64,000 nucleotides of DNA from an uncultured Planctomycetota bacterium (GTDB lineage Bacteria > Planctomycetota > PLA2 > JAEUHO01), in contig CAVVXN010000005.1 in assembly GCA_963752285.1 (NCBI GenBank), positions 1,664,001 through 1,728,000 on the forward strand, written 5' to 3'. The translations under genes and the position numbers were made by a program. Under the pieces are notes generated by a model. That model was given only the letters and a program-made list of their open reading frames with translations, was not told the origin of the DNA and searched no databases. This document shows positions 8,054 through 44,969 of this stretch, piece by piece (the stretch's first letter is position 1; every line of letters starts with the position of its first letter).

Positions 8054-9208
8054 TCAGCGCGCGGCGCGCCGCGGCGGTGCGGTCGGGGGCGCGGCGCCTT
8101 CGCGGGCTTCGGCGGAGAGGAGCTCCAACGCGCGCCTGTTCGCGCGGGGGAACGCGTAGCCGTCCAGGTCCGAGAGGCGGACGAAACGCGGCGACTCGCA
8201 CGCGAGCGGGCGCGGACGACCGCGGGCGCACGAGCAGTGGAAGAGGTGGAGCGTGATCTTCATGTGCGTGTAGGCGTGGTCGATCGCCACGAACCGGCGA
8301 CCGACCGCGACCTCGAGACCGGTCTCCTCGCGGACCTCGCGCGCGCAGGCCTCCTCGAGCGTCTCCCCCCGCTCCCGCTTCCCGCCGGGGAACTCCCAGA
8401 GCCCGCCGAGGAGACCTTCGCGGGGCCGGCGCGCGACGAGGAGCCGGTCGCCCCGCCACACGAGACCCGCCGCGATGTCGTGGTGCGGGACCGGCTTCCT
8501 CGCGGGCCTGTGGGGCAGCGCGGCTGCCCGGCCGCGAGCTCGGGCGCGGCACACGTCCGCGAGGGGACACACGTCGCAGCGCGGCGCCCTCGGCACGCAG
8601 ACCGTTGCGCCGAGGTCCATCACGGCCTGGTTCCAGTCGCCCGGCCGGGACGCGGGGAGGAAGGCATCCGCCGCGCGGCGCACGCGTTCTCTCGCCGCGG
8701 ATCGGGTCACGTCGCCGCCCTCGTCGAGGAGTCGCGCCACGACGCGGACCACGTTCCCGTCCACGACGGCCGCCGGGCACCCGAACGCGATGCTCGCCAC
8801 CGCGGCGGCCGTGTACGGCCCGAAACCCGGAAGGGCCACGAGGGCCTCGACCTCGCGCGGGAGGGTCGCCCCGTACCGCGCCACGAGCACCCGGGCCGCG
8901 CGGTAGAGGGACCGCGCCCTCGCGTAGTAGCCGAGCCCCTCCCACGCCTTCAGGACCTGGTCCTCGCGGGCGCCCGCGAGGGACCGGACGTCGGGGAACT
9001 GCGCGAGGAACCGCGGCCAGCGGTCGAGGACCGTGGCCACGCGCGTCTGCTGGAGCATGGTCTCCGAGACCCAGATCTCGTAGGGGTCCCGGGTGCGGCG
9101 CCACGGGAGGTCCCGCGCCGCGCGGTCGTAGTGGGCGAGGAGACGGCGACGGACGCGCCGCACGAAGGACGCGTCCGGGCCCGACGACCCGGTGTCGCGG
9201 GCCCGCAC
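8054..9208 (-). CDS. mutY: A/G-specific adenine glycosylase MutY with C-terminal NUDIX domain (start uncertain; 9265 possible)
   Basis: RDLPWR, IWVSETMLQQT, WEGLGYYARAR, HhH LPGFGPYTA, VDGNVVRV, Fe-S motif CVPRAPRCDVCPLADVC. Confidence 0.95.
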   Translation of the reverse strand: MRARDTGSSGPDASFVRRVRRRLLAHYDRAARDLPWRRTRDPYEIWVSETMLQQTRVATVLDRWPRFLAQFPDVRSLAGAREDQVLKAWEGLGYYARARSLYRAARVLVARYGATLPREVEALVALPGFGPYTAAAVASIAFGCPAAVVDGNVVRVVARLLDEGGDVTRSAARERVRRAADAFLPASRPGDWNQAVMDLGATVCVPRAPRCDVCPLADVCRARARGRAAALPHRPARKPVPHHDIAAGLVWRGDRLLVARRPREGLLGGLWEFPGGKRERGETLEEACAREVREETGLEVAVGRRFVAIDHAYTHMKITLHLFHCSCARGRPRPLACESPRFVRLSDLDGYAFPRANRRALELLSAEAREGAAPPTAPPRRAAR

Positions 9209-9263
9209 GCGGGAAGGGCCGTCTCGGCGTCCGCCTCTGGCGGACGCCCGGGAACGATCGGTC

Positions 9264-9297
9264 ACGGGTCGCGCCGACGGCGCGACTAGGGAGCCGC
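9264..9297 (-). promoter_or_regulatory. Candidate bacterial SECIS element directly 3' of an in-frame UGA
   Basis: mRNA after UGA reads GCGG-CUCCCUA-GUCGCGCC-GUC-GGCGCGAC-CCGU: 8-bp upper stem after an 11-nt spacer, loop starting GU, possible lower stem GCGG/CCGU. Confidence 0.6.
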
Positions 9298-9819
9298 TCA
9301 GGTCCCGCCGACGCAGGGCTCGGGCGCGGCTCTCGGCGCGCCCGCCCCGGCGAAGAGGCCCTTCATCGACCCGCGCGACGCCGCGGGGCGCGGCGTGGCG
9401 ACGGCCTCGCGCGGCGGCATGACCGGCGCGGCGACGGCGGGCTGAACCCGCGCGGTGCGGCTGACCGGCACCACCGGCGTCGGCCCGGCCAGGTCGCGGC
9501 GTACCAGCGGGACCGCGCGATGCCCGCGCATCAGCTCCATCGAGGGCGGCGCCGGCGTCGGGGGCCGCGCGGTGGTCGTCGCGACCACGCGCGGCTCGAT
9601 CACGACCGGCCGCGCCACGGGTCCGGCATGCACCGGTCCGGAGATCACGGGGCTCGGGCTCACGGGCCTCGAGCTCACGGTGCGGCGGATCACGCGCGGC
9701 GGCGGCAGCGCGGCCCGGGAGGCCACGCTCGTCCGACGCTGCGACAGCCCGCCCGAGGCACAGCCGCCGAGGACCACGACGGCCCCCAGCGCGAACGCCA
9801 CGGTTCTCGGCATCCTCAT
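9286..9819 (-). CDS. Pro/Arg-rich lipoprotein, paralog 1; putative selenoprotein ending EPCVGGT-U-AAP (TGA 9298-9300 recoded, TAG stop 9286-9288)
   Basis: GGAGG SD; lipobox-like VLGG-C; TGA aligns with the Cys of both paralogs; ATG at 9813 is an alternative start. Confidence 0.7.
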
Positions 9820-10104: not shown

Positions 10105-10665
10105 TCAGGGGACCAGACACCGGCCGCCGGCACACGGGTCGGCCGCACAGGGGGAAGGCGCGGCCACCGGGGACGCCCGCGGCGACTCGAAGAGGCCGCG
10201 CAACTCCGAGAGCGAGCTCGTCCTCGCCGCGCCGAGCGACCTCGGGGCCCGGGGCGCGGGAGCGGCCCGAGCCGGAAGCGGCGAGGCGACGGAGAGCCGG
10301 AGCGGCGCGGGACGGCTGACGGGGACGACCGGCGTCGGGCTCGAGAGGGCCCGCCGCGCGATGGACGACGTGCCCGGTCTCGCGAGGATCTCCATCGACG
10401 CGGGCCGCGGCGGCCCCGGCGCGCGGACCACCGCCGGCTCGGGCGCTGCCAGGCGCCTTGTCTCGACGACGCGCGGCGCGACGAAGGCCGGCGTGACGGT
10501 CCGGGCCGCGGCGACGGAACGGACCGGGAGGCGATAGGACGCGCTCCGCACGACCGGAGGCGGGAGGGACGCGCGTGAACGCGGCACCCGGACGGGGGCG
10601 CCGGGGGCCGCGCAGGCACCCAGGAGCAAGAGCCCCCCCATCCCGAACGCCAGGATCTTCGACAT
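10105..10665 (-). CDS. Pro/Arg-rich lipoprotein, paralog 2, ending PCAADPCAGGRCLVP
   Basis: GGAGG SD; lipobox LLGA-C; shares RAxLPPP, SME, PTPVVPVSR and GLF blocks with paralog 1. Confidence 0.75.
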   Translation of the reverse strand: MSKILAFGMGGLLLLGACAAPGAPVRVPRSRASLPPPVVRSASYRLPVRSVAAARTVTPAFVAPRVVETRRLAAPEPAVVRAPGPPRPASMEILARPGTSSIARRALSSPTPVVPVSRPAPLRLSVASPLPARAAPAPRAPRSLGAARTSSLSELRGLFESPRASPVAAPSPCAADPCAGGRCLVP

Positions 10666-11323: not shown

Positions 11324-11698
11324 TCAGGGGACCCGGCAACGGCCGCCGGCGCAGGGGTCGCAGCCGTCGTCGGCCGTCTTCGGGCACGGGCGGAACAGGG
11401 TCCCGAGGCTCCCCGAGTGGACGGTCGCCGAGCGGCGGGCGGCCTGGGCCTCGGACGCGTCGGCCCCCGCACGCACGGCACGACGCGACACGAGCGTCGC
11501 GGCGGACGCCGGCTGCGCCTTCGACGCCGCGGTCGCCGCCACGTGCACGACGGCCGTGGTCGTGGTCGGCCGGGCGTCGCTCACGCGCGGCGCCTCGGGG
11601 CTGGTCACACCGGCGAGCACGCGCTCCCTCGCCAGCGGTCGCGACGCACACGCGGCGAAGAGAAGCGCGACGAGGGGAAGGAACATCGAGGTCTTCAT
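11324..11698 (-). CDS. Ala/Arg-rich lipoprotein, paralog 3, ending CPKTADDGCDPCAGGRCRVP
   Basis: GGAGG SD; lipobox LFAA-C; same C-terminal motif and xxLF block as its neighbours. Confidence 0.75.
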   Translation of the reverse strand: MKTSMFLPLVALLFAACASRPLARERVLAGVTSPEAPRVSDARPTTTTAVVHVAATAASKAQPASAATLVSRRAVRAGADASEAQAARRSATVHSGSLGTLFRPCPKTADDGCDPCAGGRCRVP

Positions 11699-11926: not shown

Positions 11927-13393
11927 ATGCCCCGTAGGAACAGGCCGGGACCGGGTGGCGATGCCGCGGCGTCGCGCGCGTCGCGCCCCGTGGCCGGAGC
12001 GGCGCTGCTGGGGCTCCTCGCCGCGTTCCTCGGCGCGTCGGGGCTCGAGGCGGGCGAGTCGGACGGCGTCCGGTGGGAGCCGGACCTCGAGGCGGGGCTG
12101 CTCCGCGCCGCGAAGGAGGGCCGCCCCGTCCTCCTCGCCGTGAACGCGATCGAGACGGAGGCCGCCAACCAGCGTCTGGCGGGCGAGATCTACCCGTCGG
12201 CGGCGTGGGGCGACGCCACGCGCGACTGGGTCGCGTTCGTCGGGAACCCGAACGCGCACGGCGGCGCGGCGTGCTCGCGATACGGCGGCATCCCGTGCGC
12301 GACGCACCAGGCGGTGCTCCGCTACGTCGTGCGGCGCTTCGCGCCCGGCGGCGACCTGATCAGCCCGCAGCACCTCGTCCTCGACCCCGACGGGCGCCTC
12401 GCGTTCCGCAAGGAGTACTTCACGGGCGTGGTGGGCCCGGACTTCTTCGACCGGTGGCTCGCACGGCTCTGCCCCACCATCACGCTCGACCGGGCGGCGC
12501 GCCGGCGCCCCGACACGATCGACGCCCTCGGCGCCGCGCCCGTGGAGAAGGTGACGGACACGGCGCGGGCGTGGCTACGGAGCGGCGACCCTCTCGCGCC
12601 CGCCGGCGTGCTCGACGCGATGGACTACGCCATGGAGGAGCCGCGACGGGTCGCGCTCGCCCTGTCGTTCGACGCGACGCCGAAGGAGCTCCTCGCCGTG
12701 CCGTGGACGGCGGCGTACGACGCCGCCGTCGCGCCCGACGACGCGCCCGAACGGACGCTCGCGTTCGTGACCGCGTTCCTGCTCGCCGATCCGGGCACGG
12801 GCGCCGACCTCGCGGCGCGCGCCGCCGTGCTCACCCGGGACGCCTCCCTGTCGAGCCGGGTCCTCGCCGCGTGGGTCGGCGGGCCGGTACCGGCCTCCGG
12901 CGTCGTGCCGGGCCTGGACGACCGGGCGGCGGCCCGCCTCGCGGAAGTCCTGGCGCTCCTCGGTCGGCCGGACGGCGGGCGGGCGCCGGAGAGGCTCCCG
13001 CCGCCTCTCGCCGCGCGCCTCCAGCGCGCCCGGGAGAAGGCGGGGCGCGCCGCGACGCCCGCGCCGCCGCTCGCGCAGGTCCTCGCCGCGGACCCCGCGC
13101 CGGGCGCGCTCCGCCGGGCGGTCCTCGCCGCCGCGCCGGACGCGGTCCTCGCGTCCGAGGCCGAGGTCCGCGCGCTCCTCGACCGTCCGGAGGAGCGCGT
13201 GCGCGTGGCCGCCGCGCTCGCGCTCCTCTCGACACGGCGCCGGCTCGACGCCGCGGCCGAGGCCGTGCTCCTCGCCGCGGTCTTCGACCCCGTCGAGGGG
13301 CCCGACACGCGCGAGCTCGCCGCGCTGCGTCTCGGGACCGACCCGGGCCGCGACGAGGAGACATGGCGACGCGCGTTCGAGGCCCGCAGGTGA
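11927..13393 (+). CDS. Exported protein with N-terminal thioredoxin-like domain (no CXXC) and helical-repeat C-terminus
   Basis: Signal-like hydrophobic stretch; VRWEPDLEAGLLRAAKEGRPVLL and PQHLVLDPDG typical of thioredoxin-fold N-terminus and cis-Pro strand; HEAT-like LLDRPEERVRVAAALAL. Confidence 0.65.
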   Translation: MPRRNRPGPGGDAAASRASRPVAGAALLGLLAAFLGASGLEAGESDGVRWEPDLEAGLLRAAKEGRPVLLAVNAIETEAANQRLAGEIYPSAAWGDATRDWVAFVGNPNAHGGAACSRYGGIPCATHQAVLRYVVRRFAPGGDLISPQHLVLDPDGRLAFRKEYFTGVVGPDFFDRWLARLCPTITLDRAARRRPDTIDALGAAPVEKVTDTARAWLRSGDPLAPAGVLDAMDYAMEEPRRVALALSFDATPKELLAVPWTAAYDAAVAPDDAPERTLAFVTAFLLADPGTGADLAARAAVLTRDASLSSRVLAAWVGGPVPASGVVPGLDDRAAARLAEVLALLGRPDGGRAPERLPPPLAARLQRAREKAGRAATPAPPLAQVLAADPAPGALRRAVLAAAPDAVLASEAEVRALLDRPEERVRVAAALALLSTRRRLDAAAEAVLLAAVFDPVEGPDTRELAALRLGTDPGRDEETWRRAFEARR

Positions 13394-13398
13394 GCCCG

Positions 13399-14424
13399 AT
13401 GCGCCGCGGCCTCCTCCTCCTCGCCCCGCTCGTGCTCGCCGGGAGCCTCTACGGACGGATCTCGGGCGTCGCGCGCGGCAGCGACGAGCCCACGCTCGAG
13501 CACCTCCTCGGCGCGCTGCTCCGCGCGGACGACGACACGAAGGTCGAGGCCGCGCTCGACGCGATCGCGGCGCGCGTCGGAGCGCCGCAGGGCTTCCGCG
13601 ACCAGGGCGCGCTCGCGGACTGGCTCGGTCGGATCGCCCCCTCCGCGGCGAAGCAACCCCGGGTGCTCCTCCGGCGCGGGTACGCGTACGTCGCCGTCGG
13701 GCGCGGCCAGGACGCGATCGAACCCCTCACGGAGGCCGCCGCGACCGAACGGACGCGAACCGCGGCCACCGCGTACCTCGGCGAGGCCTACCGGCAGTCG
13801 GGGGACCCGGCGCGCGCGCTCGAGGTCCTGGCCGAGGCGGCCCGCCTCGGCTACGAGCCCTCACGCTTCCTCGACGAGGCCGCGCTGAAGGCCGCGTTCT
13901 CGATCCGACAGAACGAGGTGCGCCAGGCCGCGAAGGACCTGCCGCGGTACGCGGCGGCCTCCGCGGTCTATCTCGCGTCGCGCCCGTCGCCCGCGGTCGA
14001 GGCCGCCGTCGCCCGCTGGCTGCTCGACGACGCGGACGCGTACGCCCCGGTGGGCTCCGAGCGTGAGGCGAGGTGGTCCGCCTTCGCCGCGAAGGAGGCG
14101 GTGGCCGCCGTGCGCGCGGACCCGACGATCGCGGGCGGGCCCCGCCTCTGCTACGACGCCGCCCTCGGCCTCGCCGCCGAGGACGCACGGACGGGTGGTC
14201 GGACGCTCTACTTCGACTGCCTCGCCTGCGCCTACCGGCTGGGCCGGGGCCCGGACCGCGATACGCACGAGATCCCCCAGGCGATCGCGCTCCTGGCCGA
14301 GGCGGCGCTCCGCGAGGGCCGCTACAGGCTGGCGCTCCGGCTCGCGCGCGAGCGCCTCGCGGTCTCGGACAGCCCCCTGGCGCGGGAAGTCCTCCGGGAC
14401 CTGCCGCCCGACGTCGCGGACTGA
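13399..14424 (+). CDS. Exported TPR-like helical repeat protein
   Basis: Signal peptide MRRGLLLLAPLVLAG; TPR-like RGYAYVAVGRGQDAIEPL and YLGEAYRQSGDPARALEVL; follows the previous gene directly. Confidence 0.7.
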   Translation: MRRGLLLLAPLVLAGSLYGRISGVARGSDEPTLEHLLGALLRADDDTKVEAALDAIAARVGAPQGFRDQGALADWLGRIAPSAAKQPRVLLRRGYAYVAVGRGQDAIEPLTEAAATERTRTAATAYLGEAYRQSGDPARALEVLAEAARLGYEPSRFLDEAALKAAFSIRQNEVRQAAKDLPRYAAASAVYLASRPSPAVEAAVARWLLDDADAYAPVGSEREARWSAFAAKEAVAAVRADPTIAGGPRLCYDAALGLAAEDARTGGRTLYFDCLACAYRLGRGPDRDTHEIPQAIALLAEAALREGRYRLALRLARERLAVSDSPLAREVLRDLPPDVAD

Positions 14425-23222: not shown

Positions 23223-23298
23223 TGAGGAGTAGTTCAGCTGGTAGAACGCCTGACTCTGGATCAGGAAGTCGGAGGTTCGAGTCCTCCCTCCTCAGCCA
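23223..23298 (+). tRNA. tRNA-Gln (anticodon CTG)
   Basis: Acceptor TGAGGAG/CTCCTCA, anticodon arm CCTGA-CTCTGGA-TCAGG, T-loop GTTCGAG, encoded CCA. Confidence 0.97.
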
Positions 23299-23345
23299 CC
23301 CTCGCCGCTCGGCCCGCGCATCGTCGGTCTCTCGCCCGCCACCCC

Positions 23346-23421
23346 GGCCCCATCGTCTAGCGGTCTAGGACACGGCCCTCTCAAGGCTGAAACGGGGGTT
23401 CGAGTCCCCCTGGGGTCACCA
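23346..23421 (+). tRNA. tRNA-Glu (anticodon CTC)
   Basis: Acceptor GGCCCCA/TGGGGTC, anticodon arm CGGCC-CTCTCAA-GGCTG, T-loop GTTCGAG, encoded CCA. Confidence 0.97.
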
Positions 23422-43034: not shown

Positions 43035-44969
43035 TCAGGACGACGCGCGGATCTGGCGCCGGTCCCCGGATCGGCGCGTGAAGCCCGATCGGTCGAACGC
43101 CTCGAGCAGCGGGATCACCCACTTCCGGGTCGAGCCGAGCAGCGTGCGCGCGTCGGACGGCGTGAACCCGCCCCGTTCCCGGGCGAGGCGGGCGAGGCGC
43201 TCCTTGGCCGACTCGACCCACGCCCCGTCGAACCACAGGTCGCCCGCCTGGAAGGCCTCGCCCCGCGTCTTGAGGATCTTGAGCGCCCGGAGCACGCGCG
43301 GGCGCGAGAGCCCGAGGTCGGCCTCCAGGTCCTCCACGAGGGGCGGCTGGGCGCCGCCGCGCCGGAGCGCGGCCCGGAGCTGGTCCACCTCGCGCTGGTC
43401 CTCCGGCGACAAGGACGCCTCGTGCGACGCGAGGCGCAGCGCGTCCTTCCCCTCGCGCACGAGCCGGCCCCGGGCGACGAGGTCGTCGAGCGCGGCGTCG
43501 AGGACCGCCGGAGAGACCCGGCCGGCCGCGGTCCTGACCAGGGAGACCGGGAGGTGCCGGAGGGCCTCGTCCTTCGCGTGGAGCTTCGCCGCGCCCGCTT
43601 CCAGGCGCCGCCGCACCTCGTCGAACGCGGAGCGGAGGATCCACAGGTCCCGCGCGTGACCGAGCCGGAGCGCCTCGTCCGCGAGGACCATCGCCTCGAC
43701 GGCCGCCTCGAGGGCCCGCGGGAGGAGCCCCGTGGCGCGCGCGATCTCGGCCGGACGCGCGCCCGCCTCGCCCGCGCGCCGGAGCTCGGTCATGAGGAGC
43801 GCGCGCGGGTCGTCGAGGTGCTCCGACTGCTCGAGGAACGCCGCGACGAGGCCCGTACGCCGACGGGGAAGGCGGGCGGGCAGCACCGCGACCACGACGC
43901 CGCCCCCGAGCGTCGCCGAGGCGTTCTCCGCGCGCACGACGAAGCGGTCGCCGGGCAGCGCCACGACGTCCTCGAACGTCTCGAGCTCGCCGATCGTCGT
44001 GCCCCCGGGCTCGAGCGCACGCGCCTCGAGGAGGTGGAGGCGAGCCTCCCACTGCCCGGCGCCCACGTGGAAACGGACGCGGGACCGGGCCTCGAGCGGG
44101 CCCTGCTCGGCGAGGAGGCGCAGACGCACCGCGAACCGCCGGGCGGGCAGGACGGCGCCGGCCTGGCAGACGACCATCCCGCGCCGGATCTTCCCGGCCG
44201 CGACGTCGGAGAGGGCCAGCGCCGTGCGGCGGTGCGGCCGCGCCTCGACCGCACCGCGCTTGTGGACCTCGATCCCGCGCACGCGCCCGGTCCAGCCCGG
44301 GGGCAGGATCTCGACCCCGTCGCCCTCGCGGACCCGCCCCGCGAGCGGGATCCCGGTCACGACCGCGCCCCGGCCCTCCGCGACGAACGCGCGCAGGATC
44401 GGCATGCGGAACGCACGAAGATCGTCGGCCTCGGTGTCCCGGGCCGGAGGGAGCGCGTCCGCGATGGACCGCCGCAGGAGGTCGAGGCCCTCGCCCGTCG
44501 CGCTCGAGACCCTCACCATCGGCGCGGCGGGGATGCCCGTCCGCTGGAGGAGGTCCCGGGTCTCCTCCTCCACGATCTCGATCGTCTCCTCGTCCGCGAG
44601 GTCGATCTTCGTGATCGCGACGACGACGCGCGTGACGCCGAGCAGGTCCAGGATCTGGACGTGCTCGCGCGTCTGCGGCATCGGGCCGTCGTCGGCCGCG
44701 ACGACGAGCAGGACCAGGTCCACGGCGGTCGCGGCGGCCACCATCGTGCGGACGAGCCGCTCGTGGCCGGGCACGTCGAGGAGGCCGACCTCGGTCCCGT
44801 CGTCGAGCGCGAACGCCGCGTACCCGACGTCGATCGTCATCCCCCGTTCGCGCTCCTCCTTCAGGCGGTCCGTGCGCTCGCCGGTCAGGCGCTCGACGAG
44901 GGAGCTCTTGCCGTGGTCGATGTGACCCGCGGTGCCGAGGATGACGCGACGGACGGCGGTGGCGGTCAT
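43035..44969 (-). CDS. selB: Selenocysteine-specific translation elongation factor
   Basis: GTAGHIDHGKSSLV..LTG..TDRLKEE.ERGMTID, DVPGHER, TKID; C-terminal winged helix STRKWVIPLLEAFD...TRR.GD.R. Confidence 0.96.
   Translation of the reverse strand: MTATAVRRVILGTAGHIDHGKSSLVERLTGERTDRLKEERERGMTIDVGYAAFALDDGTEVGLLDVPGHERLVRTMVAAATAVDLVLLVVAADDGPMPQTREHVQILDLLGVTRVVVAITKIDLADEETIEIVEEETRDLLQRTGIPAAPMVRVSSATGEGLDLLRRSIADALPPARDTEADDLRAFRMPILRAFVAEGRGAVVTGIPLAGRVREGDGVEILPPGWTGRVRGIEVHKRGAVEARPHRRTALALSDVAAGKIRRGMVVCQAGAVLPARRFAVRLRLLAEQGPLEARSRVRFHVGAGQWEARLHLLEARALEPGGTTIGELETFEDVVALPGDRFVVRAENASATLGGGVVVAVLPARLPRRRTGLVAAFLEQSEHLDDPRALLMTELRRAGEAGARPAEIARATGLLPRALEAAVEAMVLADEALRLGHARDLWILRSAFDEVRRRLEAGAAKLHAKDEALRHLPVSLVRTAAGRVSPAVLDAALDDLVARGRLVREGKDALRLASHEASLSPEDQREVDQLRAALRRGGAQPPLVEDLEADLGLSRPRVLRALKILKTRGEAFQAGDLWFDGAWVESAKERLARLARERGGFTPSDARTLLGSTRKWVIPLLEAFDRSGFTRRSGDRRQIRASS

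Follow-up and report, generated by a model that had tools for sequence, protein, structure and literature searches.

A predicted selenocysteine tail with a 3′ hairpin on exported proteins of one Planctomycetota family

The locus and its genes

The window, by which we mean the whole stretch of 64,000 nucleotides analyzed, belongs to a genome of 4.64 Mb and 73% GC (labelled G000 in our genome comparisons) and holds, upstream of a mutY-type gene, three tandem minus-strand genes, here called P1, P2, and P3 (Table 1). The product of P1 is laid out as a signal peptide, followed by a disordered linker rich in Pro, Ala, Val, and Arg and then by a CxGGxU tail; its frame has a GC3 of 0.94 and the best coding score among the + reading frames. 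The preliminary description of this DNA had placed the three tails, the in-frame TGA, and the hairpin behind it at positions that all proved exact, on the minus strand. It had also put the TGA of P1 on a conserved Cys column, where the TGT of P2 and the TGC of P3 do align, and the sequence bears out its contrast of a true TAG stop in P1 with TGA stops in both paralogues. Gene callers were expected to cut P1 short, and the database gene call (P0004, 171 aa) indeed stops at the TGA. The terminal Pro and three-residue tail are present in P1 to P3 but do not hold generally, in that Sec-form tails elsewhere have 1 to 4 residues (16 at two loci) and several lack the Pro.

Table 1. Features of the locus and selenocysteine-related sites elsewhere in the genome.
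Feature	Position	Strand	Remarks
mutY-type adenine glycosylase	8054..9208	-	HhH-GPD, 4Fe-4S, NUDIX; syntenic marker; start codon uncertain
Predicted bacterial SECIS hairpin of P1	9268..9286	-	8 bp, GUC loop; equivalently 7 bp with CGUCG loop
P1, predicted lipoprotein gene	9286..9819	-	177 aa, predicted Sec174; a start at the second ATG (9813) would give 175 aa; end reads EPCVGGT-TGA(9300-9298)-AAP-TAG(9288-9286)
True stop TAG of P1	9286..9288	-	From the sequence
C-terminal tail of P1, C-V-G-G-T-U-A-A-P	9289..9315	-	CxxxxU pair; from alignments
In-frame UGA of P1, predicted selenocysteine codon	9298..9300	-	Column alignment with Cys of paralogues and orthologues
Lipobox LGGC of P1	9760..9771	-	Cys20 is the predicted lipid-attachment site; read by eye, conserved
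P2, Cys paralogue lipoprotein	10105..10665	-	186 aa; tail CAGGRCLVP; without hairpin; end DPCAGGR-C-LVP-TGA; Cys codon TGT at 10119-10117
P3, Cys paralogue lipoprotein	11324..11698	-	124 aa; tail CAGGRCRVP; without hairpin; end DPCAGGR-C-RVP-TGA; Cys codon TGC at 11338-11336
Divergent exported protein conserved beside the locus	11990..13393	+	No Pfam or NCBIfam match; Cys pair not invariant
selB	43035..44969	-	TIGR00475, 317 bits, over cut-off
Known-type TGA sites, active-site Cys column (G000)	C5:252206, C5:1051408, C4:141550, C2:357831	-
Known-type TGA sites, active-site Cys column (G000)	C5:1821586, C4:48192, C4:45701, C1:736103	+

Two divergent exported proteins lie beside the lipoprotein genes (11990-14424, plus strand), one without a family match and one with TPRs; they recur at the locus in most of the family genomes examined, adjoining a malic enzyme gene. 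The one at 11990..13393 was considered as an obligate partner and rejected, given that its Cys motif is unmatched in 5 of 17 orthologues. The window further contains genes for tRNA-Gln and tRNA-Glu (23223-23421, plus strand).

The in-frame UGA and its hairpin

An unbiased syntenic set was formed from the DNA around mutY in 24 family relatives and the own genome (25 genomes in all). At the mutY-linked locus, the second Cys column of the tail is TGA in 7 of the 25 genomes and TGC or TGT in 15, and the remaining 3 (genus g6) keep the lipoprotein but have lost the tail motif. The hairpin accompanies all seven TGA loci of this set, versus none of 17 Cys tails (those of the 15 genomes, plus P2 and P3). 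A metagenome search contributed two sequences, one with TGA and the hairpin, found on a pair of identical contigs, and one with Cys that lacks the hairpin, so that the hairpin is found in 0 of 18 Cys tails overall. Alternation of TGA with TGC or TGT at a single column, which the preliminary description had proposed as a check, is thus seen across the family, with the hairpin only where TGA occurs; the prospect it had raised, that the orthologues would all carry TGC or TGT, is contradicted by TGA in six other mutY-linked orthologues. The UGA aligns with a Cys conserved in homologues, and the C, G, and C/U columns of the tail, invariant across the family alignments, are the sole invariant elements. 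Among database relatives (representative proteins), 10 of 16 have CxGG[T/G] as their very last residues, and 6 read on through a Cys; for four of the ten, the TGA was confirmed at the DNA level. On a MutY tree, the Sec label needs four to five changes in bootstrap trees, two of them forced by well-supported branches, although loss of paralogues could mimic this apparent switching between Cys and Sec.

These orthologues bear on the suggestion that the TGA of P1 is a private nonsense mutation or a sequencing error of the assembly. Reads from four sequencing runs gave no coverage of positions 9252-9339, which leaves room for such an error at P1 itself; the same TGA, however, recurs in one metagenome sequence and, across 7 genera, in at least 11 further MAGs, by which comparison this suggestion is effectively refuted.

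The hairpin was described beforehand as an 8-bp stem with a loop starting GU, set off from the UGA by an 11-nt spacer, and this is exactly what is found (stem 9286-9279/9275-9268), with the loop G 19 nt from the UGA. The first base of the stem is the G of TAG, and because the stem begins on this last base of the stop codon, the hairpin of P1 is untranslated. The published bSECIS model (PMC13188914) has a loop of 3-9 nt, a stem of 4-16 bp, a G in the first two loop positions, a spacing of 16-37 nt, and an MFE of at most -7.5 kcal/mol. The P1 hairpin, with its 3-nt GUC loop, 8 bp, and 19 nt, fits that model as given there, and the 45-nt region containing it reaches -20.1 kcal/mol. Behind the Cys codon of P2 and that of P3, the detector returned no equivalent hairpin, as had been claimed; the stem that starts 3 nt after the Cys codon of P3 is unrelated.

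Taken singly, the P1 hairpin is only modestly unusual (z -2.12; 5 of 200 shuffles equally stable). Hairpins of its type arise in 5.7% of base shuffles, and in its own 73% GC genome, a relaxed detector places a hairpin after 18 of 167 CxxGx-TGA matches, P1 included; with strict geometry (at least 7 bp, GU at 19-22 nt), one follows 7 of 2239 predicted TGA stops. The strong evidence for a SECIS element in P1 is instead its conservation across genomes. Specifically, the loop G is invariant across the Sec-form hairpins and lies 19-23 nt from the UGA (sd 1.28, n=19 listed loci), and its position spreads twice as widely when measured from the true stop as from the UGA (sd 2.56 vs 1.35, n=17). The stems, moreover, covary across loci, as the proposed check for a covarying hairpin had called for: among the first 13 hairpins, of which three with tetraloops were set aside and 10 used, seven of seven pairs changed on both sides, pairing holds in 92.9% of cells, and the covariation score was 0.949 versus 0.182 for shuffled and at most 0.237 for slid windows, figures that lean upward through the hand-centring of the windows on the loop and the derivation of the structure from the same hairpins.

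Two other explanations of the hairpin were rejected. First, a transcription terminator is disfavored, given that no terminator site was found and no U-tract follows any of the 13 Sec-form hairpins examined; the earlier worry that the structure might prove unconserved or a mere terminator is likewise at odds with its presence at seven of seven TGA loci. Second, a tie to mutY translation does not fit the gene order: in G001, mutY lies convergent and not downstream, and at five further Sec loci the gene that comes next is a different one. On these grounds, mutY is probably not functionally linked to P1.

Beyond the syntenic set, DNA pattern searches over the family and order, in which TGA was required and a stem never was (some patterns also demanded a stop codon or two to three loop bases), added at least 11 loci, for at least 19 loci with TGA plus hairpin; 12 of the 19 Sec-form loci came from homology or patterns, outside the unbiased syntenic set. 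At least 18 of them lie in at least 12 MAGs of at least 7 of 16 genera, and one is the metagenome sequence. By class, across all fetched loci, the hairpin is found with 16 of 18 coding-like TGA matches versus 1 of 34 coding-like Cys matches, and with 8 of 153 off-frame decoys (two contig-edge members having first been moved out of the decoy class), related genomes being non-independent samples in all such counts. Among individual candidates, L144 and L185, coding-like TGA matches without the hairpin, were rejected as not being family members, as was a second own-genome candidate (C5:339038), which is an off-frame chance match (GC3 0.49). A likely Sec-form member at a contig end (G042 L250) was left out of the counts. 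Outside the family, matches among 401 phylum genomes ran at the control level, the hairpin was found in 0 of 22 fetched loci (of 48) from that sample, and no tail was seen near mutY in 11 sister-family genomes examined.

The ends of these genes are informative as to whether the TGA is simply a real stop, in which case the protein would end CxGGT with a single Cys and the hairpin would be an mRNA stability or termination element. Gene callers do read the TGA in this way, the residues past it are few and variable (1-4 in the 19 loci listed, save for 16 in two), and hairpins after stops are common in GC-rich DNA. However, an in-frame TAG or TAA stands 1-4 codons past the UGA in 16 of the 19 listed loci; the true stop is TAG in 16, TAA in 2, and TGA in only 1 (two codons past the UGA), so that 18 of 19 are non-TGA, versus 11 of 18 Cys tails that end in TGA. 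Further, in a tandem pair of G013, the coding sequence runs on for 16 similar residues past the UGA and takes in the hairpin, and this conserved extension begins GVP, as in Cys forms. The hairpin itself, missing from 18 of 18 Cys tails, follows the UGA and not the stop or the next gene, and it has an invariant loop G and no U-tract. We therefore regard a real stop as very improbable. Viewed against the criteria of Haft and Gwadz, the 19 loci provide, at the DNA level, at least 10 examples (criterion 1), all with TGA at the truncation site (criterion 2), and similarity past the U (criterion 3) has 1-4 residues to act on in 17 of the 19 listed.

The genome has the corresponding machinery. selB lies in the same window, as had been noted, and the selA, selC, and selD genes that remained to be confirmed are all present: selA, selB, selD (with one in-frame TGA), and tRNA-Sec (selC) score over cut-off. 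Of 40 genomes of the order, 37 have selA over cut-off, and 28 of 29 in the family have selB over cut-off; G044 (88% complete) holds two Sec-form loci and no selB match. A codon-model scan of the own genome gave 46 TGA sites with coding-like flanks, of which 8 are known selenoprotein types, namely SelD, a SelW-like protein, a TUGYCR redoxin, two ResA/TlpA-like and two peroxiredoxin-like proteins, and one HMA protein. In seven of these eight genes, the loop G of the best stem falls 21-23 nt past the UGA, and two share the GUC loop with P1. Six of the eight start with signal-peptide-like sequence, as judged by eye, and the organism therefore appears to export selenoproteins. Two more TGA sites in long coding-like frames with a hairpin near, C4:42005 (+), which has no family match, and C5:358694 (-), are possible further selenoproteins or broken genes.

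Comparison of these loci establishes that P1 ends in C-x-G-G-T-TGA-x(1-4)-stop, with a predicted bacterial SECIS element in the 3′ UTR. Its TGA is, with high confidence, predicted to be decoded as selenocysteine via SelB and the hairpin, giving a protein that ends CVGGTUAAP.

Exported proteins that carry the tail

P1 has what characterizes a bacterial lipoprotein, a signal peptide with a lipobox Cys (by eye) and an Lgt enzyme, for which its genome has two genes. The lipobox Cys is nearly invariant in 17 aligned orthologues, in keeping with the lipid anchor claimed previously, and the weak NCBIfam matches of P1-type proteins are mostly to lipoprotein families. From the lipobox, we infer export of P1, with lipid attachment at Cys20 and retention in the cell envelope. 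An AlphaFold model of P1 (pTM 0.17) contains the signal helix and one short helix and otherwise no fold; composition and model together suggest that the roughly 150 disordered residues act as a tether.

Besides the lipoproteins, some proteins with ordinary signal peptides end in the Sec tail, CxGG[T/G]U-x(1-16)-stop, and a CAP-domain protein carries it in G006 and G023, which are among the three genomes in which the mutY-linked lipoprotein has lost its tail. In the family, the Cys form of the motif is enriched (54 matches vs 17 controls). The 20 Cys-motif regions fetched comprise three secretins, four exported proteins in which the motif directly follows the signal peptide, three other lipoprotein-like proteins, two larger ones with internal motifs, one uncertain case, and seven chance matches. 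Several orthologues are rich in Cys and Pro, and some repeat the Cys motif two to three times. Given that the tail occurs on lipoproteins, signal-peptide proteins, a CAP-domain protein, and, in its Cys form, secretins, the unit is a portable envelope module. The initial reading of P1 as a selenoprotein lipoprotein is favored by the sequence checks, but its scope was understated.

Several other proteins with related motifs were observed. In L212, L214, L218, and L219, exported proteins that are porin-like by eye (partial sequences, no Pfam match), the mature chain begins CxGGxCxxP. Exported-looking proteins with Cys-rich tails containing CxGGxC lie at C1:569534 (+) and C4:36978 (-) of G000, one of them thioredoxin-like by eye. 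Six Cys-form orthologues (L046, L048, L056, L057, L062, and L076) share a conserved insert holding a single Cys pair region, which is YHS-like by eye and without a Pfam match for the one scanned.

Possible roles and relation to known systems

What the tail might do can be approached by analogy. Given selenocysteine, we lean slightly towards the CxxxxU tip being a swinging redox arm that acts in trans. First, SelB bound to the 3′ hairpin would insert Sec at the UGA. The tip would then close into a selenenyl-sulfide loop, be re-reduced by one of the organism's exported TlpA/redoxin proteins, of which the exported TlpA selenoproteins are plausible reductants, and pass electrons to envelope proteins or reshuffle their disulfides; the tail and its non-coding SECIS would make up a module portable among several exported proteins of the family. 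Disordered two-Cys tails carry electrons to the active site in ribonucleotide reductases (PMC9669993), and in FrnE a CxxxxC tail restores the active site of another subunit (PMC8945050). This C-terminal FrnE tail was also the only match in a tail-profile search of the PDB, at a non-significant E of 0.4. Against such an arm, P1 has no catalytic domain in cis, and the presence of the Cys motif inside proteins, as repeats, and on secretins would suit a structural or metal role just as well. Taken as one whole statement, that Sec is inserted at the tip of P1 and that this tip is an envelope-tethered CxxxxU redox arm, the proposal has in our judgment an even chance.

Were Sec inserted, the tip could alternatively offer two tethered ligands to soft metals or metalloids (Cu, Hg, Zn), either to capture them or to pass them along in the envelope. 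The exported HMA-domain protein of the genome has its TGA at the metal site, many predicted selenoproteins bind metals (PMC13188914), and the repeated Cys motifs and YHS-like insert (by eye; no Pfam match) of some orthologues point the same way. Yet the surroundings of the loci show no conserved genes for metal resistance or transport, and a flexible loop with two ligands would hold a metal poorly unless the protein formed dimers. The sole structural look-alike, FrnE (E 0.4), is a redox tail. We consider a metal site unlikely, though worth weighing.

The spread of the motif invites a third possibility, in which the tails cross-link envelope proteins into a disulfide and selenenyl-sulfide network, with Sec speeding the formation or exchange of cross-links, much like OmcA, a Cys-rich chlamydial envelope lipoprotein. 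Enrichment of the Cys motif in the family, its presence on 3 secretins among 20 regions, directly behind the signal peptide of four exported proteins, and on other lipoproteins, and the Cys/Pro-rich character of several orthologues would suit this. Most Sec-form proteins, however, have few other Cys, a single terminal pair favors an intramolecular loop, and literature searches on the idea gave no relevant paper. Cross-linking seems to us unlikely, slightly more so than a metal site.

Returning to the redox arm, we tentatively propose, as a broader hypothesis held at somewhat less than even confidence, that CxGG[T/G]U and its non-coding 3′ SECIS together form a selenopeptide tag, portable and about 45 nt long, which one Planctomycetota family has placed on several unrelated disordered envelope proteins (lipoproteins, signal-peptide proteins, and a CAP-domain protein), that it has switched between Cys and Sec more than once, and that the arms would be the moving component of a selenium redox network outside the cytoplasm, in which the organism's exported TlpA, peroxiredoxin, and HMA selenoproteins also take part. 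The nine-residue tail can be synthesised, so that the question of Sec versus Cys is directly testable.

The mechanism of Sec decoding is known; the novelty is an uncatalogued, domain-less, lineage-restricted selenopeptide tail. Table 1 of PMC13188914 (119 families, 2026) has no CxxxxU motif or such family, the comparison by sequence covering the entries given with a motif or model, and CxxxxU on a protein without a folded domain would thus be a selenoprotein type not seen in the 2026 catalogue. NCBIfam (June 2026) and Pfam gave no match near cut-off for tail-bearing proteins other than the CAP-domain one. An ESM Atlas search with P2 returned unnamed matches only (<0.9). The literature searched, including published passages on BSepDB and SelCysML, showed nothing on a CxGGxU tail, although a member could stand in the BSepDB database itself or in supplementary data. 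The tail exposes a blind spot: where Sec lies 1-4 residues from the C-terminal end of a low-complexity protein, homology searches fail, and the loss goes unnoticed because gene callers drop only a few residues.

Among described systems, SaoC (NF040734) resembles the P1 family, as predicted here, in being exported, mostly a lipoprotein, with Sec at the C-terminus, and its SECIS, a 7-bp stem with a G-containing triloop past the stop, is comparable to that of P1; SECIS use beyond the stop codon has been proposed for it (bioRxiv 2022.07.06.499078). SaoC differs in ending with adjacent CU (a Cys-Cys-COOH (seleno)lipoprotein), as opposed to CxxxxU, and in belonging to the SAO neighbourhood, a set of nine genes in C. 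difficile and further anaerobes; P1 has no CC/CU dipeptide, NF040734 match, or SAO neighbourhood. TsoB (NF045694, UxxxxU) has the only four-residue spacing in Table 1 of PMC13188914, comparable to that of P1, but is a rhodanese/DsbD fusion-like protein to which no P1-family protein matched.

FrnE of Deinococcus radiodurans (PDB 5cnw) ends in 239-CxxxxC-244, a spacing that P1 reproduces with U as the second C (profile E 0.4 only), and its flexible tail acts on the active site of another subunit, as proposed for P1 (PMC8945050). Unlike P1, which is exported, with predicted Sec and no folded domain, FrnE is cytoplasmic and Cys-only and has its own DsbA-like CxxC domain; such a domain is absent from P1 by Pfam, NCBIfam, and the disordered model. 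Class I/II ribonucleotide reductases likewise end in a disordered Cys pair, CxxxxC in E. coli class Ia (PMC9669993), but this tail is on a cytoplasmic enzyme, and no sequence match to it was found.

One parallel in layout is engineered. In rat TrxR1 expressed in E. coli, a construct with a penultimate Sec and a bacterial SECIS in the 3′ UTR, SelB decodes a near-terminal UGA via a SECIS past the stop (PMC3834832), and a near-terminal UGA with the hairpin past the stop is likewise the layout in 17 of the 19 listed loci, although that construct is artificial and concerns a eukaryotic flavoenzyme with adjacent Cys-Sec. The family would thus be a natural counterpart of the engineered 3′-UTR SECIS used for recombinant selenoproteins, and given that the SECIS is non-coding in those 17 loci, it offers a natural set for SelB recognition rules free of protein constraints.
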